A stretch of 51,914 nt of DNA from Anaerolineae bacterium (GCA_034434895.1 DAOTYI010000043.1:1-51914), one strand, 5' to 3'; shown: positions 8,910-46,500, counted from the first letter of the stretch. The notes: generated by a model not told the origin, from the letters alone. Program-made: numbers and translations.

Positions 8910-8915
8910 AAGAGC

Positions 8916-8940
8916 AGGGCAACAGCTCGCAGTTGCCCTA
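8916..8940. repeat. palindromic GC-rich element (REP-like), copy 1. Probable bidirectional terminator between convergent genes.
   Basis: AGGGCAACAGC-TC-GCAGTTGCCCTA. The same element occurs at 24662-24689 and 25393-25414. Its distal CCCTA supplies the TAG stop (8938-8940) of the minus-strand gene. Confidence 0.75.
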
Positions 8941-10845
8941 CTTCAAGGCCAGGATGAGCACCCCATCCTGCTCATAGACCGTCTCGTAAGCCGGGCTGCG
9001 GCGCAGGGTCTCGGCGTCCAGCAACGGTCCCCCCACCTGGCCGATGTAGACATGGGTGATGCCCTGGGAGCGCAAGAACTCTACCAGCTCTGGATCGTCC
9101 AGCCGGCCGGCCTCCAGGCGGCGGGCCAGGGCGTTCACCTGCTCCTGGTAATCGGGCGGGTCGGCGGCCTCCATGCTGTAGGTGGCAGGTGGCACCGTGT
9201 TGGCCCGCCCGGTCAGCAGGGGGATCCACCAGCCGGCATCGGAGCCAAAGATGTAGTGGCCCCCAAAGGAAAAGAAAGAGTTGACCAGGAAGCGGGCGTG
9301 AGGAGGCGTGTTTTCCCGGATCCAGGCCATGGCCTGCTCGTCGGCAGGGGTAACCAACTGGTAGGTGTGGTCCAGCACATCGGACCGGGCATGGGCTCCG
9401 ACCAGGCTGAGGAGTGCAGTCAAGGCCAGGGCTATTCCCTGGACCCGGTGGCGGCGGGCGGCCAGTTCCAGCCACTCGCCGGCCAGATAACCCAGCAACA
9501 TCGCCGTCGGCAGGTAGAGGCTGATGATGACCGTAAAGTTGTTGACCAGGCCGCTGTCCAGGCCCAGCCGGTACAGGTTGGCCAGAGCCAACACCAGCCC
9601 GGTCCAGAAGGCGATCAGGCTGGCCGGCGAACGGCGGACCAACGCCCAGGCCGCACCCAGCAGCGCCGGCCATACCAGCCAGCCGGGTGAAAAGTGCCAG
9701 TTGACCCGGAAGGCATTATACTGCTCGTACAGGCTGGCCGATGCCTCGCCCCGCTGATAGGCGGCCAGATTCCCCGGCAGCAGGCCGAAACCGAGCCGCC
9801 ACAGCCAGGGCATCGCCAGTGCCAGGGCGATCAGGCCTGTGCCCGCCAGGCGGAGGAAGGGCACCGACCACAGGCGGGGCGCGTGGCGGGTCACCAGCAG
9901 ACGGTAGATCAGGTAGGGTGGCAGGAAAGCCAGGTAAAAGAGGAGGATGCGATAGTGCGTCAGGCCCAGGCCGGCCACGGACAGGGCAGCCAGAGCCACC
10001 CGACCGGCGTCCCACCGCCCGGCCTCGACCGCTTCCAGCGTGAACCACAGGGCGACCGGCAGGATGGTCAGGCCGGTGAGTTGCGTATAGCGGCCCCAGT
10101 TCACGTAAAACAGGGGCATGGTCGTCAGCAGCCCGGCGACAAGCACCGCCCCGACACCGGCCCAACGCCGTCCATCACTCAGCCGCACCGCCAGCGGATA
10201 GAGGGCCAGGGCGGCCAGGGCGTTGATGAACTGGCCGACCAGCACCACCGTCCGGGGGGTAGAGTTCCCGGTCAGCCAGCCGGTGGCCCACTGGAACAGG
10301 GCTACGTCGGCATGAAAGCCAAAGTGGTAGGTAAAGGAACGCAGCGGGACATAGGGTTGCCACGATTCGAACAGGCCCCCGTTGTCCAGGATCAGTTGGG
10401 CGATCATCGTGTGCTGGTAGGAATCGCCCCAGAAGCCAACGTTGACCCCGCGCACGACCCACAGCCGCACCCAGAGGGTCAGGGTTGCCACCAGCATCAG
10501 CGCCACCAACGGTGCGTCCAGCCACGCCAGCCTCTCGCGCCCCGATCCTCTTCGCCACCAGGTCCACCAGCCCGGCCCTCGCCGCCACAGGATCACCCCG
10601 GCGCTGAGAGCCAGCATGGCCAGGATGGCTCCCGTACCGACCTGCCACCCGACCAGGTGGAGAAACAGCAGCCCGACCGGCGTCAGGGCCAGGGTCAACC
10701 CGGCAGCCAGCACAGGCCACAAAGCCACATCGGAGTGGTTGGGGACGCGGGGCCACAGCAGGCTGAGCAACGCTCCCCCCGGCAACAGAAAGAGGAACGG
10801 TGCGGCCAGCGTCGCCGCGAAAGTGCCCCAGGTGATCTCACCCAC
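8938..10845 (-). CDS. polytopic integral membrane protein, GT-C-fold glycosyltransferase-like, with C-terminal soluble domain
   Basis: 635-aa ORF with more than 10 hydrophobic segments and a ~150-aa hydrophilic C-terminus. GTG start at 10845 preceded by a GGGAGGAG RBS. The function is inferred from topology and neighbourhood only. Confidence 0.5.
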   Translation of the reverse strand: MGEITWGTFAATLAAPFLFLLPGGALLSLLWPRVPNHSDVALWPVLAAGLTLALTPVGLLFLHLVGWQVGTGAILAMLALSAGVILWRRGPGWWTWWRRGSGRERLAWLDAPLVALMLVATLTLWVRLWVVRGVNVGFWGDSYQHTMIAQLILDNGGLFESWQPYVPLRSFTYHFGFHADVALFQWATGWLTGNSTPRTVVLVGQFINALAALALYPLAVRLSDGRRWAGVGAVLVAGLLTTMPLFYVNWGRYTQLTGLTILPVALWFTLEAVEAGRWDAGRVALAALSVAGLGLTHYRILLFYLAFLPPYLIYRLLVTRHAPRLWSVPFLRLAGTGLIALALAMPWLWRLGFGLLPGNLAAYQRGEASASLYEQYNAFRVNWHFSPGWLVWPALLGAAWALVRRSPASLIAFWTGLVLALANLYRLGLDSGLVNNFTVIISLYLPTAMLLGYLAGEWLELAARRHRVQGIALALTALLSLVGAHARSDVLDHTYQLVTPADEQAMAWIRENTPPHARFLVNSFFSFGGHYIFGSDAGWWIPLLTGRANTVPPATYSMEAADPPDYQEQVNALARRLEAGRLDDPELVEFLRSQGITHVYIGQVGGPLLDAETLRRSPAYETVYEQDGVLILALK

Positions 10846-10874: not shown

Positions 10875-10890
10875 CGCAGAGACGCAGAGA
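10875..10890. repeat. CGCAGAGACGCAGAGA short repeat (copy 1 of 3)
   Basis: The same 16-22-nt string occurs at 14604-14625 and 24629-24651, always intergenic. Confidence 0.6.
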
Positions 10891-24651: not shown

Positions 24652-24661
24652 AGGAATTATA

Positions 24662-24689
24662 GTAGGGCAACTGCTCGCAGTTGCCCTAC
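24662..24689. repeat. palindromic GC-rich element (REP-like), copy 2, perfect 13-bp arms
   Basis: GTAGGGCAACTGC-TC-GCAGTTGCCCTAC. It again provides the TAG stop (24686-24688) of the minus-strand gene. Confidence 0.8.
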
Positions 24690-25174
24690 TGTAAAGGAGG
24701 CGGTAAAAGGCTCCCCCTGCCTTCCAACAACGCCACCAGTCTGACCACCGCATCTTCAACCTTTCCCATCTCTGGCCCCCCGATCGCCCCCTCTTCCCTT
24801 TCTTCGGCAGACCCCTGGCACACCCCGGCGCTGCGCAGAACTGCGTCGGCCGCCCCCAGGGCCAACAGGTAGCCCCCTTCCCCTGCCACCTGGCGCAGCA
24901 GGGTGTAGACCCGTGGCTCGGCGCTGAGCTGGCGGGCCGCCTGCACTCCGCCCGGCAACACCACCGCCCGCGGCCGCTCCCCCTCCATTTCGCTGAGGGT
25001 CGCGTCCGGCGTCACCAACAGGCCATACGCCCCCCGGATCGGCCCGGCCATCAGGCCAACCACGATCACCGGCAGGCCTGCCCGCCGCAACAGGCAGGTC
25101 ACCACCGCCAGGTCGGTCTCCTCAAAGCCGGGAGCCAACAGCACAAACACCTGACCTTTCCTCGCCCTGTGCAT
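24686..25174 (-). CDS. DJ-1/PfpI-fold protein lacking the nucleophile cysteine
   Basis: VFVLLAPGFEETDLAVVTCLLRRAG...AVVLPGG... is the DJ-1/PfpI pattern. The nucleophile-elbow position (AICAGP in DJ-1) reads ALGAAD. A GAGG RBS lies 8 nt before the ATG. Confidence 0.6.
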   Translation of the reverse strand: MHRARKGQVFVLLAPGFEETDLAVVTCLLRRAGLPVIVVGLMAGPIRGAYGLLVTPDATLSEMEGERPRAVVLPGGVQAARQLSAEPRVYTLLRQVAGEGGYLLALGAADAVLRSAGVCQGSAEEREEGAIGGPEMGKVEDAVVRLVALLEGRGSLLPPPLQ

Positions 25175-25326: not shown

Positions 25327-25392
25327 CCAAATCATCTGCCTGCATCTGCCACTTTCCGCCAAACCCCGCCGATTTCCGCCGCAGTGAATGGA

Positions 25393-25414
25393 GGGCAACT
25401 GCTCGCAGTTGCCC
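25393..25414. repeat. palindromic GC-rich element (REP-like), copy 3
   Basis: GGGCAACTGC-TC-GCAGTTGCCC. Confidence 0.75.
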
Positions 25415-25430
25415 GACGGCCAGGAGGGGC

Positions 25431-25459
25431 TTGACAGCCCTCCCAAGATGCCATATAAT
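25431..25459 (+). promoter_or_regulatory. perfect-consensus sigma-70 promoter of the STAND gene
   Basis: TTGACA (25431-25436), a 17-nt spacer, then TATAAT (25454-25459). Confidence 0.7.
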
Positions 25460-25478: not shown

Positions 25479-26921
25479 ATGACCGAAGGGGGGGGCATGG
25501 AACCGACGCCTGATGGATTGTCCCTGGCCGTCCGTGATGCGTTGCATCGCTGGTATGCAGGAGAATATGACGCCTCTCCCTGGACCGAGATGTTCCTCGT
25601 CACCCAGCGGTTGGCCGAACAGCCCATCCCCAATCGGGATCTGGCGGTCAAAGAGGTCCTGCTGGAGGCGTTGCGCGCCCTGGACAGGCAGGCAGGCGGG
25701 GATGCAGCCCGGCTCCTCCGCCTCCGTTTCCTGGATGGTCTGACGGCCCAGGAGGTGGCCAACCGTCTGAACCTTACCGAGGATGTGGTGTACAAACGCC
25801 AGCGCGCCGCCCTCCGCGACCTGACCGAAGCCGTCTGGCAGGCTGAGCAGGCGGCCCGCACCGCCAGGGTTGCCCGCCTTGCCGCCCGGCTGGAGTTCCA
25901 GGAGCCTCCCCTGCTCTTTGGCGTGGAGGACAAACTGGCCGAACTGACGGCCCTGCTGACCGCCGCAGGCCCTTCCTGGCTGGTGGCCGTGGTGGGCATG
26001 GGCGGCATCGGTAAAACCTCCCTGGCCGATGCGGCTGTGCGCCGGGTGGCCGGCTCCCCCTCCTTCGCCGACATTGCCTGGGTCAGCGCCCGACAGGAAC
26101 GCTTTACCCTGTGGGGCGGTCTGATGGAAGAGGCTCACAGAGGGCCGGCCCTGACCCTGGAGGGGCTGACGGAGGCCCTGATCGAGCAGTTTGGCTTTCA
26201 TGACCTGGCCCAACTGCCCCTGCCCCGCAAGTTGACCGGCCTGCGCGCCCGGCTCAAAGCCCGGCCCTACCTGATCGTCGTGGACAACCTGGAGACAGCC
26301 GCCGACTATCATGCCCTGGTCCCCGACCTGCGCGACCTGGCCAATCCCAGCCGCTTCCTCTTCACCTGCCGTCACTGTCTGCATGACCATCCCGGCGTTT
26401 ACAACCTGAGCCTGGACGAGCTGTCGGCCGCCGATAGCCTGGCCCTCCTCCGCCACGAGGCCGGCGAGCGCGGTCTGACCGACGTGGCCGCTGCTCCCGA
26501 CGAACTGCTGGAGCAGGTTTACCAGGTGGCCGGCGGCAACCCCCTGGCCCTCAAGCTGCTGGTGGGGCAGATGTATGCCCTCTCCCTGCCCCAGGTGGTA
26601 GAGGACCTGCGCCAGGCGCGAGGCCAGACCGTGGAAGAGCTGTACCGTTTCATCTACTGGCGCTCCTGGCACCTGCTCAGCGATGAGGCCCGACAGGTCC
26701 TGGCCCTCATGCCCCTGGTGGCCGAAAGCGGCGGCGGCCTGGAGCAGATCGCGGCCCTCAGCGGCCTGGCCGCGGAGCCGCTGGCCGCCGCCCTGAGGCA
26801 GCTGGTCACCCTCTGCCTGGTCAACGTCCGGGGCGGTGTGGAGGCGCGCCGCTATAGCATCCACCGCCTGACCGAAACGTTCCTGCTCAACGAGGTGCTC
26901 AAGTGGCAGAATGCGGGATGA
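25479..26921 (+). CDS. STAND NTPase: sigma-70 region-4-like HTH plus NB-ARC ATPase, with no sensor repeats in this ORF
   Basis: HTH LRLRFLDGLTAQEVANRLNLTEDVVYKRQRAAL, Walker A GMGGIGKTSLA, Walker B YLIVVDNLE, GxP motif GGNPLALKLL and winged-helix YSIHRLTETF. The TGA stop lies inside the heptamer array. An alternative start at ATG 25497 follows a G-rich RBS. Confidence 0.8.
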   Translation: MTEGGGMEPTPDGLSLAVRDALHRWYAGEYDASPWTEMFLVTQRLAEQPIPNRDLAVKEVLLEALRALDRQAGGDAARLLRLRFLDGLTAQEVANRLNLTEDVVYKRQRAALRDLTEAVWQAEQAARTARVARLAARLEFQEPPLLFGVEDKLAELTALLTAAGPSWLVAVVGMGGIGKTSLADAAVRRVAGSPSFADIAWVSARQERFTLWGGLMEEAHRGPALTLEGLTEALIEQFGFHDLAQLPLPRKLTGLRARLKARPYLIVVDNLETAADYHALVPDLRDLANPSRFLFTCRHCLHDHPGVYNLSLDELSAADSLALLRHEAGERGLTDVAAAPDELLEQVYQVAGGNPLALKLLVGQMYALSLPQVVEDLRQARGQTVEELYRFIYWRSWHLLSDEARQVLALMPLVAESGGGLEQIAALSGLAAEPLAAALRQLVTLCLVNVRGGVEARRYSIHRLTETFLLNEVLKWQNAG

Positions 26922-26986
26922 GGAATGCGGAATGAGGAATGCGGAATGAGGAATGCGGAGTGCGGAATGCGGAATGCGGAGTGCGG
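26910..26986. repeat. tandem heptanucleotide array, 11 units (AATGCGG / AATGAGG / AGTGCGG)
   Basis: Units counted by hand: 26910-16, 17-23, 24-30, 31-37, 38-44, 45-51, 52-58, 59-65, 66-72, 73-79 and 80-86. The array contains the stop of the NB-ARC ORF and the first ATG of the TPR ORF. Confidence 0.9.
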
Positions 26987-28177
26987 ACTGATTGGCCCCT
27001 CTTTTTCCGCCAGCAGGTAAAGGCCAACGTCCACTTCTGGCTGTCCAGGCTGGCCACCTGTCGCGCCCAGGATGAAACGTTGCTGCGGGAACGATCCAAC
27101 ATCGTAAAGGCGCTGAGCCTGGCCTTGAAGTTGGAGGCAGCGTGGGAACCGGCGCTGGACCTGATGCTGGCCTTTCACCCCTTTGTGAACTGGCAGGGGG
27201 GAGGAGCCGGTTGGGAGTCGCTCCTGGAGGCCGGCCTGACGATCAGCCGGCAGCGGGGAGATGTGGGCCGGGAGGCGGCGTTGCTGGATCGGCTGGGTGA
27301 GTGGAAGCAGAGCCAGGGGGATTGGGCGGCGGCCATCGCTTGCCACGAGGCAGCCGCCCGGCTCAGCGCCCAGATCGGCGATGAGGCCGGCCGCGTCCGT
27401 GCTCTGACCAACGCCGGTCAGGTGTATCACCTGCGGGGACAACACACCCAGGCCCGCATGGCCCTGGAACAGGCGCTGGCCGGCTGCCGGGGCTGTCAGG
27501 ACCTGACCGGGCAAGCGTTCGTGCATAACCACCTGGGCCTGATTGCTCTTGACCAGCAGCAATGGGATCAGGCCCTGTTGCACTTGCAGCGGGCGTATGA
27601 ATTGTGGGCGAAGGCACAGAATCTGGGGGGCATGGCCCAGGCCCAGTACAACCTGGGCAACCTCTATCTGGTGCAGGGTGACCGGCCCCAGGCGGAGCGA
27701 TGCTATCGCGCAGCCATCGCCCTGTATGAGCAGACGAATGCCGGTATTCCGTTAGCCAGGGCCATCATGGCCATGGGCAATCTCTCCTTGCAGCAGGATC
27801 GGCCGGACCAAGCCGAACAGTTCTACCACCAGGCCAGGGAGAGGATGCAGGCAGTCGGCTACACCCTGGGCCTGGCGCAGGTATTCAACAACCTGGGCCT
27901 GGCCTGTGCCCGGCAGCAGCGATGGGCCGTGGCCGAAGACCACTTCCGACGCTCCATCGCCCTGTGGCAGCAGCTTGACCAGCCGGTGGGCCGGGCCAAT
28001 GCCGAGGACAACCTGGCCGAGCTGTACCTGCACCAGCAAAGATGGCAGGAAGCGGCGGAGCTGCTGGCCCAGGCCCAGGAGCGGCTGGCCGGCCTGGAAC
28101 GCACCGGCCGGGTCGCCAGCCTGCTGGCCGACATCGAAAAGCACCGGCAAAGGGCCGAACGGTTCAGAACCGGTTGA
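26939..28177 (+). CDS. TPR-repeat protein (detached sensor/scaffold module of the STAND NTPase)
   Basis: More than 8 TPR-like units (e.g. ALTNAGQVYHLRGQHTQARMALEQAL, AQYNLGNLYLVQGDRPQAERCYRAAIALY, VFNNLGLACARQQRWAVAEDHFRRSIALW). The start is uncertain (ATG 26939 or GTG 26981, both inside the repeat). The frame differs from the upstream ORF. Confidence 0.7.
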   Translation: MRNEECGVRNAECGVRTDWPLFFRQQVKANVHFWLSRLATCRAQDETLLRERSNIVKALSLALKLEAAWEPALDLMLAFHPFVNWQGGGAGWESLLEAGLTISRQRGDVGREAALLDRLGEWKQSQGDWAAAIACHEAAARLSAQIGDEAGRVRALTNAGQVYHLRGQHTQARMALEQALAGCRGCQDLTGQAFVHNHLGLIALDQQQWDQALLHLQRAYELWAKAQNLGGMAQAQYNLGNLYLVQGDRPQAERCYRAAIALYEQTNAGIPLARAIMAMGNLSLQQDRPDQAEQFYHQARERMQAVGYTLGLAQVFNNLGLACARQQRWAVAEDHFRRSIALWQQLDQPVGRANAEDNLAELYLHQQRWQEAAELLAQAQERLAGLERTGRVASLLADIEKHRQRAERFRTG

Positions 28178-28183
28178 CACCCC

Positions 28184-29749
28184 TCATCCTCCCACCCCCT
28201 GTTCCGACCGGGGTCCACGCCATGGCCACCAGTTCCAGCGTCCTAACAGCACGGCGATGGACGAGACGAGGATGACAACCACAAAGGCATCCAACAGCAC
28301 CCCCACGGCGATGGCAAAGGCCAGTTGCACCAGCCCTTGCAACGAAGAGGAGAGCATGGCTGCAAAGGTGGCCGCCATGATGATCCCGGCCGAGGCGATA
28401 ATGCCGCCGGTGTGCTGCACCGCCCGCCTGACGCCGCTCCGCACATCGCTGCCGGCCACCTCTTCCTTGACGCGCCCCATGATAAAGATATTGTAGTCCA
28501 TCCCCACCGCCATCAGCAGCACAAAGATCAAAAAGGGGACAAACCAGGTCAGGCCGCGATCCAGAATCCCCCCGAAGACCAGGCGGGTGATCCCCAAAGT
28601 GGCGCCATAGCTCAGCAGGATGGTGAGCAGCATATAGATTGGGGCGACCAGGCTGCGCAGGAGGAGCACCAGCACCAGCAGGATGCCGGCGAGCACCACC
28701 ATCATGACCCGGACAAAGTCACGGTCCATGACCTGCTGGAGATCAAGGTTGGTCGCGGTGCTGCCACTGACATAGCCGTTGCTGGCCTCTTTTACCCTGT
28801 CCCTCAGCCTGGCGGCGGTGTTCAACGCCTCCGGGCCAAAGGGGTCACTGTCCAGGATCACCTGCAGCCGGGCCGCACTGCCATCGGCTGTGGAATAGGT
28901 GTCCAGCAGCCGATCGAGTTCGTCAGCCCAATGGGTCGTCCCCCCCGCGCCAGAGGCTAATAGACCGGTTTGCCCCTCCAACTCTGCCAGGGCCCTGGGG
29001 ATGAAAAAGTGATCGCCCTGCCCCTCCAGATGATCGCGCAAGGCAAGCAGAGCAGCCTGGAAGCGGTCCAGTTCGGCCAGCAGCGGGGCGGTGATCGCCT
29101 GCGCTTCACTCCCCAGCAGGTTCTGGGAGGGGAGGCAGGTCGCCTGGGGCAGTCTGGCCTCGACCGCCGTTGCCAGTTGCTCCAGGGCTCCGGCCAGTTC
29201 CTCCCCTGCTGCCGAGATGGTGGGCAGCGGATCGGCGATCAGCAGGCCGGAAGAGGCAGGGTCGGCCAGGACTGTGGAAGGGACAAAAGTGGCTTCCGGC
29301 AGTTCACTGTGGACAAACCCGGCGACGAGGGCCAGATCCCCGGCAGCGGCTGCAATCTCGTCCAGGACGGGGGTCAGATCCGGCCCCAGGCTCAGTGCCC
29401 CCATGGGCAGGTCCTCGGGGACAAACAGGGCCTCGGGCAGGGTTTGCGCCGCCACGACCGACAGGTCGGAGAAGGCGTTGCTCAAATCGGCCAGCAGTTC
29501 ACCGATCTGGGCGATCGTCTCCCCCATCCGGGCCAGGTCAATCGTCGTCAGCCGGGCGCTCAGGTTGTTGGCGGCTGTCAGAGCGGCCCCATACTCGTCG
29601 GTGGCGGCCAGCGAAGGGTAGGCCTGGCCCAAAGCGGTGTAATAGTGTTGCACCACTTCGGCCGGCGTGGCAGCCTGGGCGGCCACAACAGGCGCGGTCA
29701 ACAGGGTGACCAGCATGACGATCCCGATCCAGTAGGTTTTTTTGCACAT
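28184..29749 (-). CDS. half-size MMPL/RND-superfamily membrane protein with signal peptide and large helical extracytoplasmic domain
   Basis: The signal peptide ends in VAAQA. It is followed by a ~330-aa Ala/Leu/Glu-rich region and one C-terminal MMPL-type TM bundle (VMMVVLAGILLVLVLLLRSLVAPIYMLLTILLSYGATLG...LMAVGMDYNIFIMGRVKEE). AGGAGG RBS. Confidence 0.65.
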   Translation of the reverse strand: MCKKTYWIGIVMLVTLLTAPVVAAQAATPAEVVQHYYTALGQAYPSLAATDEYGAALTAANNLSARLTTIDLARMGETIAQIGELLADLSNAFSDLSVVAAQTLPEALFVPEDLPMGALSLGPDLTPVLDEIAAAAGDLALVAGFVHSELPEATFVPSTVLADPASSGLLIADPLPTISAAGEELAGALEQLATAVEARLPQATCLPSQNLLGSEAQAITAPLLAELDRFQAALLALRDHLEGQGDHFFIPRALAELEGQTGLLASGAGGTTHWADELDRLLDTYSTADGSAARLQVILDSDPFGPEALNTAARLRDRVKEASNGYVSGSTATNLDLQQVMDRDFVRVMMVVLAGILLVLVLLLRSLVAPIYMLLTILLSYGATLGITRLVFGGILDRGLTWFVPFLIFVLLMAVGMDYNIFIMGRVKEEVAGSDVRSGVRRAVQHTGGIIASAGIIMAATFAAMLSSSLQGLVQLAFAIAVGVLLDAFVVVILVSSIAVLLGRWNWWPWRGPRSEQGVGG

Positions 29750-29814
29750 CGTTTCCTCCTGTTATTGTGTGATTGGTCGTCGGCCAGGTGAAAAGCCCAG
29801 CCGTTACACAGGTA

Positions 29815-29876
29815 ATACCGACCGGTCGGTATCTATTTACCACAAAAGGGCAGATTTGTCAAACCGACCGGTCGGT
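29815..29876 (-). promoter_or_regulatory. promoter of the MMPL gene flanked by two palindromic operators
   Basis: An 18-bp perfect palindrome ATACCGACCGGTCGGTAT (29815-29832) and a 14-bp core ACCGACCGGTCGGT (29863-29876). On the minus strand they flank TTGACA (forward 29857-29862), a 17-nt spacer and TAAATA (forward 29834-29839). Confidence 0.65.
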
Positions 29877-29903
29877 ATGGTTTTGTGAAAAAGGGTTCCA
29901 GTT

Positions 29904-29932
29904 CCTTCAGGTCTTGACGCAGGCTGACAGCC
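29904..29932 (+). promoter_or_regulatory. near-consensus sigma-70 promoter upstream of comEC
   Basis: TTGACG (29904-29909), a 17-nt spacer, then TATAAT (29927-29932). Confidence 0.65.
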
Positions 29933-29945
29933 ATAGTATAATGGT

Positions 29946-32384
29946 ATGGCAACCAGGCCAACTCGAAAGGAAAAGCCGATGCCCCCTTTGGTATGGGTCG
30001 CTGTTGCCTGGGCTGCCGGTCTGGTGACGGCCCGCCACTGGCTGGTGCCTGCGGGGATCAGGCCGGCCTCGCTGCTCCTGCTCTGCGCCATCCCTCTGGC
30101 GGCTGTTATTCTGTGGCGTAAGGACCGCTCTGTGCGGCTGTCTGGCTTTTGTGCCCTGGCTTTGCTGCTGGGGGCGCTCCGCTATCAGGTGGCCCTGCCC
30201 GACCTGAGCGATCCCCACTTTGTGGCCCACTACAACGATGCCGGCCAGGTGACGCTGGAGGGGGTGGTGCAGGGCTATCCCGACGTGCGCGACACCTGGG
30301 TCAACCTGAAGCTGCGCAGTGAGTGGCTTGAGGTCGAAGGGCAGCGGCTCCCGGTCTACGGCCTGGTGTTGGTCCGCGCCCCTCGCTTTCCAGAGGTCCA
30401 CTACGGCGACCGGCTGCGGGTGTCGGGTCGGCTGGAGACGCCGCCCGAGTTCCAGGGCTTTTCCTACCGCGACTATCTGGAACGGAAGGGGATCTACTCG
30501 CTGCTCGGCCACCCGCAGGTCGAACGGCTGGCTTCCGGTCAGGGCAATCCTGTCTGGGCGGCAGCCCTGGCCGTGAAGGATCGCGCCCGCCGGGTCATCG
30601 CCCGGCTGGTGCCGGAACCGCAGGCTTCGTTGTTGCAGGGGATTTTGCTGGGCATCGAGGCCGGCATCCCGGACGACCTGTATGACGAGTTCAACGCCAC
30701 CGGCACCAGCCACATCATCGTCATTTCCGGGTCCAATATCACCCTGATCGCGGCCCTGTTGGCCACCAGCTTTGGGCGCATGTTGGGCGGGCGCCGGGCC
30801 TACTGGTTCACCGTGGCCGGCATTGCCCTCTATGTGTTGTTTGTGGGCGCCGATGCAGCCGTGGTCCGTGCCGGGGTGATGGGCGGGCTGTATGTGACCG
30901 CTCGCCATCTGGGGCGCCGGGCCACAGCCTATGTGTCGCTCTGTGCCTCCGCCATCCTGCTGACAGCCATCCAACCCCTGGCCCTGTGGGATGTCGGTTT
31001 TCAGCTCAGCTTCGCCGCCACCCTGGGGCTGATCCTGTTCACCCCGGCCATCGAGCGGCTGTTCGAAAAGGCCCTGGTGCGGCTGGTCTCGCGGGAGAGG
31101 GCCCGGCAGCTCCTCCGCTATCTCAACGACCTGCTCATCGTCACACTGGCCGCTCAGGTTCTGACCATTCCCCTGGTCATCTACCACTTTGGCCGGCTAT
31201 CTCTGGTCGCCCCTCTGACTAACCTGCTGATCCTGCCGGTGCAGCCGCCGATCATGATCTGGGGTGGGGCGGCCACTCTGGTCGGGCTGGTGTCTTTTCT
31301 GCGGCCGGTGGCCCAGGTGATCGCCTGGCTGCCGTGGCTGTGCCTGGCCTACACGACGACCATCGTCCACTGGATGGCAGGCTGGCCTCTGGCTTCCCTC
31401 CAGATCGGCCGGGCCAGCGCGGGCCGGCTGGTGATCTACTATGGGGTCCTCATGGGGGCGGTATGGGCCTTGCGCCAGCGGCAGGGGTATGCCCGCCGTG
31501 CCTGGAGATGGATGATGAGCCGCTGGTCCACCTCCCTCATCGTCGGCGTGCCGCTGGCGGCGGCCATTCTGGCCTGGCTGGCGGTGTTGCAACTGCCCGA
31601 CGGCAGGTTACATGTCGCCTTTCTCGACGTGGGCCAGGGGGACGCGATCCTCATCACCACCCCACAGGGCCGACAGGTATTGGTAGATGGCGGCCCCAGC
31701 CCCACCGCCCTGGCCTCTGCTTTGGGGAAAGAGATGCCCTTTTGGGACCGCTCCATTGACCTGGTGGTGATGACCCACGCCGATGCCGACCACATCGGCG
31801 GTCTGGTGGAGGTGCTGGACCGGTACAGGGTGACCGGCTGGCTGGATAACGGTCGGCCGGATGAGGACCCTCTCTTCCGTGAGTGTCAGGCTCTGCTGAC
31901 CAGGGCCCATGTTGCCCGCCAGGTCGTGTACGCCGGCTACCGGCTGGACCTGGGGCGAGGGTTGGGGCTGGAGGTGCTGCACCCGCCGCCGGGGCTGATG
32001 GTCGGCACCCAGGCCGAGGCGAACAACAATTCGGTGGTGCTGCGGCTGGAATGGGGGCAGGCCCGCTTCCTGCTCACGGGCGATCTCGAAGCGGAGGGGG
32101 AGGAATGGCTGTTGCGCTCAGGTCTGCCCCTGGCCGCCGATGTGCTCAAGGTCGGCCACCACGGCAGTGGCGGCTCCTCCACGGCCGGGTTCCTGGCGGC
32201 GGTGAGGCCCCGCTACGCCGTCATCTCGGTCGGGGCCGACAATCGCTTCGGCCACCCCGACAGGGCCGTGCTTGAGCGCCTGGCCCAACTGGGCGGGGTG
32301 ACCGTGCTGCGCACCGATGAGCAGGGCACCATCGAGTTCATCACCGATGGACGGCGGCTGTGGGTGCGCACCGGCCATCGCTGA
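29946..32384 (+). CDS. comEC: DNA internalization-related competence protein ComEC/Rec2 (DUF4131 + competence channel + metallo-beta-lactamase domain)
   Basis: A polytopic core with GTSHIIVISGSNITLIA and a C-terminal MBL domain (DVGQGDAILI, THADADHIGG, LKVGHHGS). The ATG at 29946 is only 13 nt after the -10. The ATG at 29979, preceded by AAAGGAAAAG, may be the true start. Confidence 0.88.
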   Translation: MATRPTRKEKPMPPLVWVAVAWAAGLVTARHWLVPAGIRPASLLLLCAIPLAAVILWRKDRSVRLSGFCALALLLGALRYQVALPDLSDPHFVAHYNDAGQVTLEGVVQGYPDVRDTWVNLKLRSEWLEVEGQRLPVYGLVLVRAPRFPEVHYGDRLRVSGRLETPPEFQGFSYRDYLERKGIYSLLGHPQVERLASGQGNPVWAAALAVKDRARRVIARLVPEPQASLLQGILLGIEAGIPDDLYDEFNATGTSHIIVISGSNITLIAALLATSFGRMLGGRRAYWFTVAGIALYVLFVGADAAVVRAGVMGGLYVTARHLGRRATAYVSLCASAILLTAIQPLALWDVGFQLSFAATLGLILFTPAIERLFEKALVRLVSRERARQLLRYLNDLLIVTLAAQVLTIPLVIYHFGRLSLVAPLTNLLILPVQPPIMIWGGAATLVGLVSFLRPVAQVIAWLPWLCLAYTTTIVHWMAGWPLASLQIGRASAGRLVIYYGVLMGAVWALRQRQGYARRAWRWMMSRWSTSLIVGVPLAAAILAWLAVLQLPDGRLHVAFLDVGQGDAILITTPQGRQVLVDGGPSPTALASALGKEMPFWDRSIDLVVMTHADADHIGGLVEVLDRYRVTGWLDNGRPDEDPLFRECQALLTRAHVARQVVYAGYRLDLGRGLGLEVLHPPPGLMVGTQAEANNNSVVLRLEWGQARFLLTGDLEAEGEEWLLRSGLPLAADVLKVGHHGSGGSSTAGFLAAVRPRYAVISVGADNRFGHPDRAVLERLAQLGGVTVLRTDEQGTIEFITDGRRLWVRTGHR

Positions 32385-33844: not shown

Positions 33845-33941
33845 CGGGAGTGGATGGGAGTCGAACCCACCAGGGCTGCTTCTGCAGCACCCCCCAGACG
33901 GTTTTGAAGACCGCGGAGCCCACCGGGACTCAACCACCCCC
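33845..33941 (-). tRNA. selC: tRNA-Sec (selenocysteine), anticodon TCA
   Basis: Hand-folded from the minus strand. The 8-bp acceptor is GGGGGTGG/CCACTCCC (one G-U). The 6-bp D stem GAGTCC/GGGCTC has a 4-nt loop CGGT. The anticodon loop is CTTCAAA. The 26-nt variable arm has GCTGC/GCAGC pairing. T arm is GTGGG-TTCGACT-CCCAT and the discriminator is G. This is the 8/5 architecture of bacterial tRNA-Sec and resembles E. coli selC. CCA is not encoded. Confidence 0.85.
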
Positions 33942-40522: not shown

Positions 40523-43500
40523 GCTGGTTGCCTCTCCTCAATGGCTGCCTTGATCTCCCGGACAAGCATGTCAACCGACAGCGGCTTGGTCACATATTGC
40601 GCCGCCCCCATGCCCAACACCCGCACTCGATCCCGCTCCTTGTCCACCGGGCTGGCGGTGATAACGATGATCGGGATGGAACGGGTGGATTCCTCCCCCT
40701 TGAGGCGTCGGATCACCTCATAGCCGTCAATCCCCGGCATGCGGATGTCGAGCAGGATCAGGTCTGGCTGGAGTTCCGGCGTGCGTTCCAACGCCTCGCG
40801 GCCGCTGGCCGCCGTCCACACCTGGTAGCCGTGGAACGACAGAGCCTGATCCAGGAAGTTCAGAATATCGGGATCGTCGTCTACGACCAGCAGCCTGAGC
40901 GGTTCGCCTTTCTCATGGGGAGCCAGGGCCCGGCGCACACTCTCCAGCAGTTTCTCCTCGTCAAACGGTTTCACCACATAATCCACCGCCCCCAGGGCAT
41001 ATCCCCGGTCGGCCTCGGTCAGGACAGAGATGATGATCACCGGGATCAGGCTGGTCACCGGATGTTCTTTGAGCTGCTCCAGCACCGCAAAGCCATCCTG
41101 ATCGGGGAGCATGATGTCCAGGGTAATGAGCTGAGGTTGCTCCTCTTTGGCCAGCCACAGGGCATCTTCCCCGCTGCCGGCCAGGAGCACCTGATACCCC
41201 TCCCCTTCGAGGTGTCGCCGCAGGAGCAGGGCCAGATCACGGTCATCTTCCACCACCAGGATCTTGGGACGCCGCCCGACGGCCGGGGGCGGTTCCACGG
41301 CAATCAGGTCGGGGTGGACGATCTCCGCTTCGGGCAGTTTGGCGCCGGCCAGGGGCAGGGTAAAGCTGAACACGGAGCCAACTCCCAACTCGCTCTCGAC
41401 CCAGATTTCGCCTCCCAACATCTCAACGAACATCTTGACGATGGCCAGGCCCAGGCCGGTGCCACCGGCTTCCTGCACCAGCGGGTGATCGGCCCGGTAA
41501 AATCGGTCGAACACCCGGGGCAGATCGTCCGGCCCGATGCCGATGCCGGTGTCGGCCACATCCACCTGCAGGAACCCATCCCGCTGCCGGAGCGACACGG
41601 TCACGCGCCCCCCGCTGGGCGTGTATTGCCAGGCGTTGGCCAGGAGGTTGTTCAAGACCTGGGTCACCCGGTCGGCGTCGCCTCGCACCTGGGGCAGCCC
41701 TGGTACTTCCATCCATTCCAGTTTCAACCCCTTTTCCCGGTACTGTTCCTGGAAGGCACGGACAACCTGGGTGATGAGGCTGGCCAGGTCCAGCGGTTCG
41801 ATGGTCAGGCGAATGCGGCCGGTTTCAATGCGCGAGATGTCGAGGATGTCGTTGACCAGGGCGGTCAGGCGGTCGGCGTTTGACTTGATGATCTGCAAAA
41901 AGCTCCGCTGGGCATCGCTCAGACCCCCCGCCATCCCCAGGAAGAGCAGGTCGGTGTAGCCCTTGATGGAGGTCATGGGGGTGCGCAGTTCATGAGACAC
42001 GGTGGAGATAAATTCGTTCTTGAGCCGTTCCACCTCCGCCTCCCGGCTGATGTCGCGCAACGCGGCCACCAGGCCAGGCGCGCCGCCCAGTTCGGTGATC
42101 AGCGGGGCGATGGTGACGGCCAACACCCGCTTGCCGGCGGTGAGGCGCACCGTGCTGACCTGGGTCCGGGATGGGTCATCGGCCGGGGTTTCCAGCCTCT
42201 GGCGCAGCTCGGAGTAGAGGGCCTGGGCCAGCTCCCGGTCGGTCGCCGTCTCCCCCAGGCCCAACATGTGGCGGAAATGCTCCCCCTGAAGCGCGATGGC
42301 CGAAAAGCCCAGGAGCTCCTCCGCCGCCGGGTTGACCAGCAGCACCCGTCCATTGTGGTCAAGCACCAGCACCCCGTCGGCGATTGATTCCAGGATGGCC
42401 CGGCTCTTGGCTGCCTCGGCCTGCTGCGCCTGAAGCATCCGGCCGAGCTGGTCTGCCTGGTCGGTGATATAGGCGTACAGGTCCGAGTTGTTGACGGCGA
42501 TGGCCACCTGCACGCCGGCTGCCGTCACCAGTTGCAGGTGTTCTTCGGTGAAATAGCCCACCTGCGGATGGCCCAAGGTCAGCACCCCCAGGATGTCGCC
42601 TCCGCCCACCGACAGAGGGGCGGCCACCACCGAGCGGATGTGGGGGTCCTGGCCATCGGTGGTCACCCAGCGCGGATCGGTGGTGATGTCGGAGATGAGC
42701 ACCGGTTGGCGATGTTCCAGGACCCAGCCGGCCAGCCCAAAGCCACGCCGCAGCGGGGTGCGCTCGTTCAAGGGGATCAGGCCCGGCTTGCGTTGGAGGG
42801 AAGCCCGGAGGTGGAGGTGGCCGGTTTCCTGGTCCACCAGGGTGATGGTCCCGTGCTCGACCCCCATCACGTCGGCAAAGAGCTGCAAGGCGCGTTGCAG
42901 CACCCGCTCCAGCTCCAGCGAAGCCCCCAGCTCAGAGGTGATGCGATAAAGCGCCTCGGCGCGGTCGCGCTGCAACGTGAGTTCCTGCATGGCCTGTTCC
43001 AGGTCGCGGGTGCGGGCTTCGACCCGTTTTTCCAGTTCGCTGCTAAAGTTCACAATCTGCCCGTAGAGTTGGGCATTCCGCACCGCTGCAGCCGCCTGGG
43101 CGGCAATGGTGGATAGCAGCTTGAGGTGGTCCTGGCTGTACACATATTCCCGCTCGTAGCTCTGGACGGCGATGACACCCACCACCTGGTCAGCCGCGAT
43201 CATCGGCACACCCAGCCAGGAACGGCAGGTGCCGGCTGTGATCTCCTGCCCCCTCTCCCGATAGATCCCGGCCACGCCGGTAGGCAGCAACAAAGGCTCC
43301 CTGGTGCGGATGATCCGGCCGGTCAACCCCTCTCCTGCCTTCCGTGGCCGCCAATCCTCCCGCTGCTCCGGGTCTACAACAAAGGGGAAGGTGATCTCAT
43401 CCCGTTCTTCATCGTAGAGGGCGATATAAAAGTTGGTTGTATCCATCAGGCGGCTGACCTGCTGGTAGACCGTTTGCAGCAACTGATCCAGTTCCAGGGT

Positions 43501-46500
43501 GGAGCTGAGGGCCTGGGACATCTCGTTCAGGACGGCCAGCTCGTTGATCCGCCGCTCCCGCTCCTGGAAGAGGGAGGCGTTCTGGAAAGCGATGGCCGCC
43601 TGGTTGGCAATCGTGGTCAGCAGGCGCAGATGGCCTTCGTCAAAGGCATCCTCCTGCTCGTAGCTCTGCACGGCCATGGCGCCGATGACCCGGCCCTCGG
43701 CGATCATCGGCACGCCCAGCCATGACCGGGCGGTGGCTCCGGCGCGGGTCAGGCCATGCTCTTCAACAAAGGCCTCGATATTGCGGCGCAGCAGCAACGG
43801 CTGGCCGGTGCGGATCAGGTAGCTGGTGAGGCCCTGGCCCAGCTTGAGGGTCAGGGGGGCTTCCCGCCGGCCGTTCTCCACGACAAAGATAATGTGGATC
43901 AGTTCCCGGTCTGCATCGTACAGGGCGATGAAAAAGCTGCGGTTGTCCAGCAGTTTGCCCACCTGGCTGTGGATCAGGGTGGACAGTTGATCGACATCCA
44001 GAGTGCCGCTGATGGCCCGGCCGATCTCGTTGATGGTCGCCAGTTCGGCCACACGGCGCTGGCTCTCCTGGAAGAGGCGGGAGTTCTGGATGGCGACGGC
44101 CAGTTGATCGGCGGCGATCTCCAGGGCAGCGGCATCCTCTTCGCTGAAGGCGTTGGGCTGATCCGCCTCTGCCTCCAGCACACCCACCACACGGCCGGCG
44201 ATCCGGATCGGCACCGACAGAGTCGCCCGCGAATCCCAGCCGGTGACCGGCAGGTTGCGCTCGTCCGCCAGGGAATCGGGACTGAGGACCGTCTTGCCGC
44301 TGGCCGCTGCCAGGCCGATGAGGCCCGTTCCCACCTTCTGGCGGTAGTTGGGCGGGATGACCGGCCAGAATTCATCGTTGGCAGCAGCCACATACAGCTC
44401 CTGCGCCGCTTCATCCACCAAAAAGACGGCCACCCGGAAATAGCCCAGGATCTGGTGCAGCGCCCTGACCGTGGTGTCCAGCACCTCCTGGAGTTCCAGT
44501 TGGGCAGCGGTGCGGCGGCCGATCTCGTTCAACAGGGAAAGGCGCACGGCTGCCTGCTGCGTGCTGGCAAACAGGCGGGCGCTCTCCAGAGCCACCGCGG
44601 CCTGGTCGGCCAGGGTGGTCAGCAGCATCTGGTCGGCCTCGGTCAGGGCATATTTGGCGGAGCTGTCGGCAGTGAGCACGCCGATCACCTGCGGACCGGC
44701 CAGGATCGGCACCAGCATCATCGAGCCGATCGGCACCGGGCCGGGGACAAAGCGGGGTTCCTGCTCCGTATCGGGGATGAGCAGAGGGGTGCGGGTGGCT
44801 GCCACATGGCCGACCAGGCCCTCACCGGGGGCAAAGCGCAGGTGGCGCATGTCCGCCAGGCTGACGCCATAGCTGGCCGTCCCGACAAATTTGCCGTCTG
44901 TCGGATCGGCCTGGAAGATGGCGCTCGATTCGCAGGGCAGCAGGCTGCACACCGCCCGGACCACGATGTTCTGGACCTGAAGGGGGTCCTGGACCTGGGT
45001 CAGGGTGCGGCCCACCTCGTTGATCAGGGCCAGGCTGTCGCCACGGTGCCGGGCATCGCTATACAGGCGGGCGTTCTCCACGGCGATGGCTGCCTGGTTG
45101 GCAAAGATGGTCAGCGCCTCCAGCGTCTGGCGTCCTGGCCGCCGCCCATCGCGGGGATCGTCCACCGAGATGATGCCCACCAACCGCCCGCCCACACCCC
45201 ACAAGGGAACCAGGAGCATGTCGTGCGGGTGCCATTGCCCCTCGTGCCACTCCTCGATTTCGGGCATCGGGGTCACGGTGTGGACCCCGGCTCCCCACTC
45301 CGCTTCCTTCTGGAAGGGGAAGAAGTAGCAGGCTCCCTGGCGGTACTCCTCCCGCAGAATCTGAAGATACCGCTCCACCGGCTGGCGGATCCGTTTCATT
45401 TCCTCAAAGGTATCCAAGGGCAGCCCGGCGGCCACGGCCCGCCGCAGCAGAGGCGGTGTCCCCTCCACAACACTGATGACGACAAGGTTAAAGCCGACCG
45501 TCTCCTGGATGGCGTAGGCGATCTCCTCCAGCGTCTCTTCCAACGGCACATCGGCGCGGAGTTTTTGCCCCACCCGCAGCAGGCCCTCCATCTGCGCCGT
45601 GCGCTGGCTGAGGGCGGTATTGAGCCGCACCTGTTCCTCAAACCGGATCGAGTTGCCGATGGCAATGGCCGCCTGGTCGGCCAGGGCGCGCACAAACTCC
45701 TGATCGTCGGCGTTAAAGGCCGCGGTCCGGGTGTGATACAGGCTGATCAGGCCCACAACCTCGCCGGCATATTGAACCTGCATGCCCCCGATTTCGGTCA
45801 CCGGCTGGGCGGTAAAGATGGGCACGATCAGCGCCGAGCAGGTGTCAGGCCGGATGCAGGCCAGGCAACCATCGCGAGGGATATTCTCCACAATGCGGGC
45901 CTGGCCGCTGTGGAGCACCTGCAGGATCAGGCTATCCCGGTCGGGGTCCAGCAGTTCCTGTTCGATGAACGCCCGTTCCTCGTCCGAATAGCCCAGGGCA
46001 GCCCGCACAGTCGGCCGCCCGGTGTTGGAGTCCAGGAGCACGACGTTGCCATGGGTGGCCCCGGTGGTGTGCAGGGCCGATTCGAGCACAACCTGGAGGA
46101 TATGATCCGACTCCAGGGTGGCGTTCAGTTCCCTGGTGGTGCGTTGGAGAGCCACCAGCTCATCCACCCGGGCCTGGAGGCGCTCATCGGTCTGCTCATA
46201 CAACCGGGCATTCTCGATCGCCACGGCTGCCTGGTTGGCCAGGGCCTGACACAGGCGCAGGTCGTCGGCCGAGAATTCACGGGCCCGACGACGCTCACAC
46301 AGCTCGGCCAGCCCCACCACCCGGTCACGGGTGACCAGCGGGACCATCAGCAGTGACTTGTGCCCGAACTGCTCCAACAGGGCCCGTTCAGCCGGATCGG
46401 CCTGGGGATCGGCGGCCTGGATCACACGGGGCTGGCGGTCGCGCAGGACCTGGGCGGTGGTCGGATATTCATCCAACGAGTAGGAGACCCCGATGTCACT

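Follow-up and report, generated by a model that had tools for sequence, protein, structure and literature searches.

A polymorphic heptanucleotide array at the junction of a putative two-polypeptide HTH-NB-ARC/TPR STAND regulator of Anaerolineae-type Chloroflexota

The 51,914-nucleotide (nt) stretch of DNA analyzed here, which belongs to an Anaerolineae bacterium (GCA_034434895.1 DAOTYI010000043.1:1-51914) and is hereafter called the window, contains two consecutive open reading frames (ORFs) that are joined by a tandem array of 7-nt units. ORF1 (25479-26921, plus strand) encodes a protein of 480 aa with an N-terminal helix-turn-helix (HTH) similar to region 4 of sigma-70, followed by the NB-ARC domain of a STAND nucleoside triphosphatase (NTPase). 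ORF2 (26939-28177, plus strand), counted from its first in-frame ATG, encodes a tetratricopeptide repeat (TPR) protein of 412 aa in a frame that differs from that of ORF1. The original prediction, which was made from the sequence of the window, suggested that the array separated the ATPase from its TPR module and regarded the locus as a recently broken gene, a repeat-controlled ON/OFF switch or a genuine two-polypeptide STAND. The last of these is strongly supported by the results described below.

The array occupies positions 26909-26992 (plus strand) and consists of 11 units (26909-26985), which read GAATGCG, GGATGAG, GAATGCG, GAATGAG, GAATGCG, GAATGAG, GAATGCG, GAGTGCG, GAATGCG, GAATGCG and GAGTGCG, and of a degenerate twelfth unit, GACTGAT. 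Tandem Repeats Finder reported a period of 7 over 26909-26987, with 11.3 copies and 84% matches. The two-unit pattern gave 10 overlapping matches in the 52-kb window, all of them within the array, compared to 0.51 expected by chance, and the array is unique within the window. The TGA stop codon of ORF1 (26919-26921, plus strand) lies in array unit 2, four residues past a conserved Trp, and the first ATG of ORF2 (26939-26941) lies in unit 5, both within the array as the original prediction had placed them. Alternative in-frame starts of ORF2 are found at GTG 26960, which has GAGGA 7 nt upstream, and at GTG 26981, while the first conserved residue of the TPR protein is the Trp encoded by 26993-26995 (W19 of ORF2). 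On the 5′ side of the array, the N-E-V codons of ORF1 contain GAGGTG (26892-26897, plus strand), a presumed Shine-Dalgarno (SD) motif 5 nt before the ancestral ORF2 start, a GTG in the K-W codons of ORF1 (26903-26905, plus strand). At this position the orthologues of ORF2 start; in the window the GTG opens a 10-codon mini-ORF (VAECGMRNAE*), which is closed by the TGA of array unit 4 (26933-26935, plus strand) in the TPR frame.

Upstream of ORF1, a predicted sigma-70-type promoter (TTGACA-17 nt-TATAAT; 25431-25459, plus strand) matches the consensus at 12 of 12 positions, in agreement with the perfect promoter claimed earlier. Translation of ORF1 may actually start at ATG 25497, given that many orthologues and one gene call of the identical protein (P0271, 474 aa) begin at about MEP. 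Between ORF1 and ORF2 no terminator-like site was found, an Rfam search of the junction returned nothing, and the predicted RNA structure of the junction was no better than that of shuffled sequence (z = 0.55).

Both domains that the original prediction had assigned to ORF1 scored above their curated cut-offs. Residues 78-115 (25710-25823, plus strand) matched Pfam Sigma70_r4 with 27.2 bits (cut-off 24.1), as expected of a sigma-70 region-4-like HTH, and residues 152-367 (25932-26579, plus strand) matched NB-ARC (PF00931) with 51 bits (cut-off 23.5). The NB-ARC domain includes the Walker A motif GMGGIGKT (25995-26018, plus strand), which is accompanied by the Walker B motif LIVVDNLE, a TCR sensor motif and GGNPLA. 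Among 50 homologues, G176, G178, K179, D269, G352, G353 and P355 were invariant, and the MHD-like His of the winged helix (H462, in IHRL) was present in at least 90%. The AlphaFold model of ORF1 (predicted local distance difference test score, 91.5; predicted template-modelling score, 0.89) retrieved a Foldseek list headed by plant nucleotide-binding leucine-rich-repeat receptors (NLRs), CED-4 and Apaf-1. It aligned with ADP-bound Apaf-1 at a query-normalised template-modelling (TM) score of 0.52, with a root-mean-square deviation of 5.3 Å over 374 columns, and with the NB-ARC of NRC1 at a TM score of 0.67 normalised to the target. A search of the PDB with the single ORF1 sequence gave no match and the family profile was required, which matched Roq1 at 6e-17 and, across the whole nucleotide-binding module (residues 125-461), AfsR (8k60) at 9e-10; the N-terminus of the profile matched the sigma-factor region-4 structures 3hug, 6dxo and 8jzt. 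Walker A and B motifs, a curated domain model above its cut-off and the predicted fold of nucleotide-binding domain, helical domain 1 and winged-helix domain, with GxP and the MHD-like His, are thus all found in ORF1, as is characteristic of STAND NTPases of the NB-ARC type. The C-terminal repeat sensor that such proteins carry on the same chain is not found in ORF1, which ends after the winged helix. ORF2 matched TPR models of Pfam throughout, including TPR_12 with 126.8 bits and many others.

Membership of several described groups was considered for the two proteins. ORF1 was ruled out as a sigma factor, because no full sigma-factor model scored above its cut-off, and no NCBIfam model did so for ORF1 either. 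Membership of the AfsR/SARP group was rejected, as Trans_reg_C and BTAD were not found and the NCBIfam AfsR model matched the TPR protein only, with 68.8 bits against a cut-off of 1430. Membership of the MalT/LAL group was rejected as well, given that the HTH is N-terminal and that TPR_MalT scored 31.8 bits, below its cut-off of 45. PADLOC left ORF1 unmatched and gave ORF2 a generic TPR hit only; an anti-phage STAND (Avs and similar) was ruled out by the lack of a PADLOC hit for ORF1 together with the conserved synteny of a context that is not island-like. The pair is best described as a putative HTH-bearing STAND regulator that would work like AfsR or MalT and is a member of neither group. 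With AfsR of Streptomyces it shares an NB-ARC module with all motifs and an attached DNA-binding domain, and ORF2 resembles the TPR region of AfsR. In AfsR, however, the DNA-binding domain is an OmpR-type winged helix followed by BTAD, whereas ORF1 has an N-terminal HTH of the sigma-70 region-4 type, the TPR module is on a separate polypeptide here, and the score is too low for an AfsR orthologue. The likeness to Apaf-1, CED-4 and plant NLRs consists of the predicted NB-ARC fold and a Pfam NB-ARC match above the cut-off; in contrast to them, ORF1 has an HTH instead of a CARD, TIR or coiled-coil effector, and the repeat sensor would come from a second gene.

Homologues of ORF1 were searched for in 5.8 billion proteins, and the best 120 of 1164 (52-96% identical) were inspected. 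An exhaustive search of 1.84 billion cluster representatives yielded 932 clusters (50% identity) with E < 1e-30, for which the best 150 representatives were listed. Almost all of the 120 homologues were 471-475 aa long, including more than 100 at 52-72% identity, and none contained a TPR domain of Pfam. Their C-termini read ...LNEVLKWQ plus three residues, compared to KWQNAG* in the window, and in 98 of 116 the stop fell exactly four residues past the conserved Trp, the same as in the window. About 125 of the 150 cluster representatives were 460-495 aa long and ended at the boundary of ORF1. Because the homologues stop four residues past the conserved Trp, the TGA in array unit 2 is at the ancestral stop position.

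The downstream gene was then read in eight array-free loci with 47-72% identity (among them L005, L006 and L128-L132), and in all eight the TPR gene was an ORF of its own, in the -1 frame. The K/R-W codons of ORF1 form the ATG or GTG start of the TPR gene in six of these loci, with GAGGTG 5 nt upstream in the N-E-V codons. A 19-nt overlap between ORF1 and the TPR gene is called in the five loci with gene calls (L005, L006, L129, L131 and L132), and GAGGTG is present in these five as well as in the window. L128 and L130 have GAAGTG instead of GAGGTG, and in them AGGA(G) and a 4-nt ATGA stop/start overlap are found further downstream. The TPR proteins of six array-free loci were colinear with, and 43-54% identical to, ORF2. 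Before the conserved Trp, the TPR orthologues share neither sequence nor length; after it, W..F...V..N...W is invariant. Only a stretch of the junction that is variable in length and sequence among orthologues is replaced by the array. The 4-nt and 19-nt overlaps, with the downstream start and its SD sequence embedded in the upstream gene, are like those of translationally coupled overlapping gene pairs (ATGA or longer), from which the lineage of the window differs in having a repeat array in place of the overlap.

The neighborhood of the pair is conserved as well. A DJ-1/PfpI gene (24686-25174, minus strand; Pfam, 71.5 bits), which is divergent to ORF1, is also found beside the pair in L005, L006, L130, L131 and L196-L199, and the block of DJ-1/PfpI (minus), NB-ARC (plus) and TPR (plus) genes is syntenic in distant relatives with 67-70% identity. 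This does not fit the accessory-looking setting that had been proposed for the locus. Homologues of about 474 aa with a common end point and two ORFs at every array-free locus show, at the level of sequence comparison, that the NB-ARC and TPR genes make up a conserved, predicted two-gene operon of Anaerolineae-type Chloroflexota, whose split is ancestral and was not made by the array, contrary to what had been suggested originally. Programmed -1 frameshifting as a link between ORF1 and ORF2 in the orthologues was rejected: no slippery heptamer is present in their overlaps, and a separate start and SD sequence are available to every ORF2.

The near-terminal Trp of ORF1 (Trp 476; 26903-26906) was found in at least 90% of the 50 homologues, although it lies within the lower-confidence tail of the structural model, and the overlapping start of ORF2 ([A/G]TG G) takes its TG from the TGG codon of this Trp. 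In the split forms, the near-invariance of the residue may be partly due to the overlapping start codon, that is, to a dual-coding constraint, as two fused relatives without this Trp would suggest. These relatives, P0145 (854 aa) and P0203 (874 aa), were the ones of fused length among the best 150 of the 932 representatives, when four longer ones were left out. Their N-termini match ORF1, and both are without Trp at the join. P0145 is colinear with the pair, with a match to ORF1 at residues 11-466 (40% identical) that is followed by one to ORF2 at residues 469-851 (30% identical; E = 4e-36). By the gene-fusion argument, ORF1 and ORF2 would form one functional STAND.

All contigs in which the array was found share at least 95% identity with the window, and it was absent from all other family members examined. 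A scan of metagenome contigs with ORF1 yielded only 2 loci, and further alleles were obtained through look-ups of the exact protein and through cluster members. When the degenerate last unit is included in the counts, five alleles were identified, with 6 (L004, L198, L199), 8 (L127, L197), 10 (L195, L196), 12 (the window, L002) and 14 units (L001/L193, L194), and each of them recurs in at least two independent assemblies. Carriers of the 12- and 14-unit alleles are 99.89% identical across 21 kb, in which they differ by 10 single-nucleotide polymorphisms (SNPs) and a 14-nt indel, and both alleles coexist in JGI sample 3300022548, in two contigs that overlap across the array. All steps between alleles are of 14 nt, fitting the two-unit higher-order pattern of the array and slippage between two-unit blocks. 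Length differences at a short repeat could also be assembly artefacts, and two contigs do break at the array, L003 inside it and L002 50 nt past it. However, the arrays are 42-98 nt long, which is below typical read length, each allele recurs unchanged in two or three assemblies that are independent and stem from different samples and pipelines, and the alleles track sub-lineages defined by SNPs. We consider artefacts a very improbable source of the polymorphism.

We simulated all 132 single slippage events, i.e., deletions or duplications of contiguous units, and followed their effects on both genes. Deletion of units 2-6 gave one continuous ORF of 887 aa, and every two-unit deletion still met a TGA, leaving ORF1 at 480 aa, just as the original prediction had stated for both cases. 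A fused ORF resulted in 5 of the 132 simulated alleles, each of which needs the deletion of at least five units: either the whole set of 11 full units (77 nt) or, with the first TGA-bearing unit among them, five or eight units, with one frame of 873-887 aa as the outcome. Restoration of a single frame by such deletions, as well as the rare fused relatives described above, could be taken to mean that the array has recently turned a single STAND gene into a pseudogene, or that slippage reversibly fuses and unfuses the NTPase and its TPR module. None of the five natural alleles is fused, however, the stop four residues past the Trp is ancestral, and all eight array-free loci have two ORFs. Nor does the TPR gene show decay. 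Its reading frame is unbroken in 10 of 10 array-bearing contigs (391-394 aa counted from the Trp), and the ratio of non-synonymous to synonymous substitution rates (dN/dS) between the window and the 96%-identical lineage was 0.33 for ORF2, compared to 0.30 for ORF1 and 0.21 for the neighboring comEC. Non-synonymous changes in ORF2 (28 of 54) were fewer than the 76% expected (p = 1.4e-4). The TPR ORF is shown by its substitution pattern to be under purifying selection and thus predicted to be functional, and a gene recently broken, or reversibly broken, by its repeat is hardly credible.

The ancestral GTG (26903) precedes the conserved Trp codon (26993) by 48, 62, 76, 90 and 104 nt in the alleles of 6, 8, 10, 12 and 14 units, respectively, which covers all three phases. 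In the two in-phase alleles (6 and 12 units), translation from the GTG meets a TGA after 3 or 10 codons, with an in-frame ATG 3 nt on. An out-of-frame ORF of 24 or 29 codons begins at the ancestral GTG in the 8- and 10-unit alleles. The 14-unit allele keeps the same 10-codon mini-ORF, now out of the TPR frame; the ATG 3 nt past its stop is also out of frame, and the first ATG in the TPR frame is 17 nt downstream. ORF1 itself has a tail of 4 aa in four alleles and of 23 aa in the 6-unit allele; in the latter, the distance from its stop to a usable TPR start is -61 nt, compared to 3 to 31 nt in the others. All five alleles have in-frame starts 4 and 11 codons ahead of the conserved Trp, because the indels fall in the 5′ part of the array, and no simulated allele (0 of 132) lost its in-frame ATG or GTG before this Trp. 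As a TPR protein started downstream of the array would lack invariant residues, its initiation must fall within the array. The ON/OFF switch of the original prediction therefore survives in one part: the repeat number is polymorphic, with five alleles of which two are in one sample, but switching by frame is not supported, as no observed allele is fused and an in-frame start is never lost. Likewise, of the two observations that had been named as counter-evidence to the prediction, two ORFs at all times with their own ribosome-binding sites were found, and a constant repeat number was not, as the number of units varies.

The explanation that we favor, with a probability of about 0.6, is that the putative STAND regulator was split ancestrally and that its junction bears a hypermutable repeat, which is tolerated and presumably near-neutral. 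Ancestrally, translation of the TPR gene would begin in the -1 frame within the final codons of the NTPase gene, through the [A/G]TG of K/R-W or an ATGA overlap. The NTPase ends just after its winged-helix domain, and its TPR partner is encoded separately. Only in the lineage of the window would a heptanucleotide of the GAATGCG type have expanded in the one unconstrained stretch of the junction, which extends from the last three codons and stop of ORF1 to the first residue that is conserved in the TPR protein. Mutating at a high rate in steps of 14 nt, the array now holds the stop of ORF1 and would supply the ATG or GTG, whichever is used, for initiation of TPR translation. Because 7 and 3 are coprime, an ATG or GTG is found in every unit and stops are missing from the 3′ units, an in-frame start would survive any change in unit number and the TPR gene would remain functional. 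On this account, the array would at most alter the efficiency with which TPR translation is coupled to upstream translation.

Four observations weigh against tolerance of a near-neutral repeat. The conserved SD sequence and GTG start read into the TPR ORF in none of the five alleles, which implies that TPR expression has been rewired and could depend on the allele. The SD-like GAGGA inside the array lies 0 or 7 nt from the candidate starts, leaving the strength of initiation uncertain. The array is kept and still varies in two sub-lineages about 4% apart in DNA, which could indicate selection rather than tolerance. Finally, only even unit numbers were seen, for which we have no explanation.

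A role of the array in tuning TPR translation is possible. Two features of contingency loci are present here, namely a non-triplet unit that overlaps the stop of ORF1 and the start of ORF2, and a unit number that is polymorphic in near-identical strains and in one sample. If this were a contingency locus, synthesis of the TPR subunit would be under a phase switch or rheostat at the level of translation. The number of units would set the phase and distance of the TPR start relative to a ribosome-capturing SD sequence and GTG (26892-26905) and to the stop of ORF1, and the sensor-to-NTPase ratio would vary in the population. The 6- and 12-unit alleles would be ON-like, through re-initiation at the ATG 3 nt past the TGA of the mini-ORF, and the 8- and 10-unit alleles, with out-of-frame translation across the TPR starts, and the 14-unit allele would be OFF-like or low. 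Consistent with this alternative are the distribution of the five alleles over all three phases, the 12- and 14-unit alleles of a single metagenome, the break of two assemblies at or beside the array, the retention of the array in two sub-lineages, and the precedents of neuO (PMC13001214) and of heptamers upstream of start codons (PMC4679880). It is less easily reconciled with the absence of the array elsewhere in a very large family, which shows that the array is not a conserved regulatory device, with the in-frame starts 4 and 11 codons before the Trp in every allele and with a TPR ORF under the same constraint as ORF1. Furthermore, the pair looks like a conserved syntenic regulator and not like a surface or defence gene, with no match to a defence system in PADLOC. 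We regard this alternative as a possibility clearly inferior in likelihood to the tolerated repeat. More speculative still is its extension to a population rheostat in free-living Anaerolineae, in which the repeat would shift the phase of the upstream relative to the array-internal TPR start and vary the sensor-to-NTPase ratio from cell to cell, and hence the set-point of the STAND regulator. If true, this would be contingency-locus logic acting on translational coupling, outside host-associated pathogens.

Heptanucleotide repeats are known to drive phase variation, for example of neuO in Escherichia coli K1 (PMC13001214). As in neuO, the tandem repeat described here has a non-triplet unit of 7 nt, is located close to the 5′ end of a coding sequence and varies in unit number among close strains. 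In neuO, however, the repeat is inside the ORF, downstream of a fixed start, and only multiples of three units are ON, whereas here the array is at a gene junction, each unit brings its own ATG or GTG and the frame is not lost. More generally, heptanucleotide repeats are the commonest repeat class in most bacterial genomes, and heptamer repeats just 5′ of start codons have been proposed to be sites of post-transcriptional control (PMC4679880). The intergenic TAACTGA heptamers of Beggiatoaceae, Cyanobacteria and Bacteroidetes also lie directly upstream of, or overlap, start codons and show 7-nt indels between close strains, but they occur at up to ~170 sites per genome with 2-6 copies each (PMC4679880). 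In the window, by contrast, a single array of another unit sequence, with 6-14 units among its alleles, is found in 52 kb and overlaps two coding regions.

As a repeat motif, the unit itself is generic. Four or more GARTGMG units in an array were found in more than 120 genome contigs of many phyla among the matches listed, and the heptamer as a special, locus-specific element was rejected on account of this wide distribution. These arrays (L007-L126), several of which are at contig ends, are mixes of GAATGCG and GAGTGCG or homogeneous GAGTGAG or GAATGAG arrays with up to 17 units; their hosts include Acidobacteriota, Planctomycetota, Verrucomicrobiota, Gemmatimonadota, Bacteroidota, Chloroflexota, Cyanobacteria and others. 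Arrays were also found in 41 viral contigs for GARTGMG, compared to 27 for a reversed-order control that partly overlaps with it. The longest open frame spanning the foreign arrays had a median of 316 codons, compared to 450 at random sites, a weak depletion that is uninterpretable in high-GC DNA.

These results correct a tempting mis-annotation, given that the NB-ARC and TPR ORFs, which could pass for frameshifted fragments, are better read as a conserved two-polypeptide STAND. Its large and little-described family (932 clusters, E < 1e-30) is suited to asking how a sensor supplied in trans controls a STAND NTPase. The results also document an active heptanucleotide repeat in uncultured environmental Chloroflexota that lies on a stop/start overlap and provides both the stop and the starts. 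If the unit number does tune TPR translation, this would be an unusual phase variation acting on the ratio of subunits; if it does not, the locus is a clean example of an out-of-frame junction that absorbs a non-triplet repeat while function is kept. The novelty is modest and consists of a variant of repeat polymorphism on a split HTH-NB-ARC/TPR junction.

Other features were observed in the vicinity of the pair. A 1.8-kb segment between the TPR gene and comEC (28150-29966) contains an MMPL gene (28184-29749, minus strand; 521 aa; Pfam MMPL, 189.6 bits). The segment is missing in 96%-identical relatives, in which about 100 nt separate the TPR gene from comEC, and hence represents an indel between close lineages. 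The palindrome GGGCAACTGCTCGCAGTTGCCC occurs with its flanks in three copies (8913-8942, 24661-24690 and 25389-25418), one just past the 3′ end of the DJ-1/PfpI gene and one upstream of the ORF1 promoter, 13 nt from its -35 box; the element may represent a hairpin like those of repetitive extragenic palindromic elements, a terminator or an operator. Doublets of CGCAGAGA at 10875, 14604 and 24630 were grouped with short dispersed repeats that resemble small intergenic repeat elements. Inverted dispersed repeats were found at 1362-1443/35683-35767 and 17-80/14633-14696, with arms of 36-64 nt that are 89-97% complementary, some of them with 8-10-nt tandem sub-repeats. A tRNA-Sec gene is located at 33846-33941 on the minus strand (Rfam, 69.8 bits; gathering score, 47). 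Finally, the region 43484-48824, on a minus-strand coding region, contains repeats of 63-132 nt with 60-75% identity, many of them ~500-560 nt apart, which resemble internally repeated domains, possibly those of a multi-GAF sensor histidine kinase similar to the one called from ~35.8 kb.

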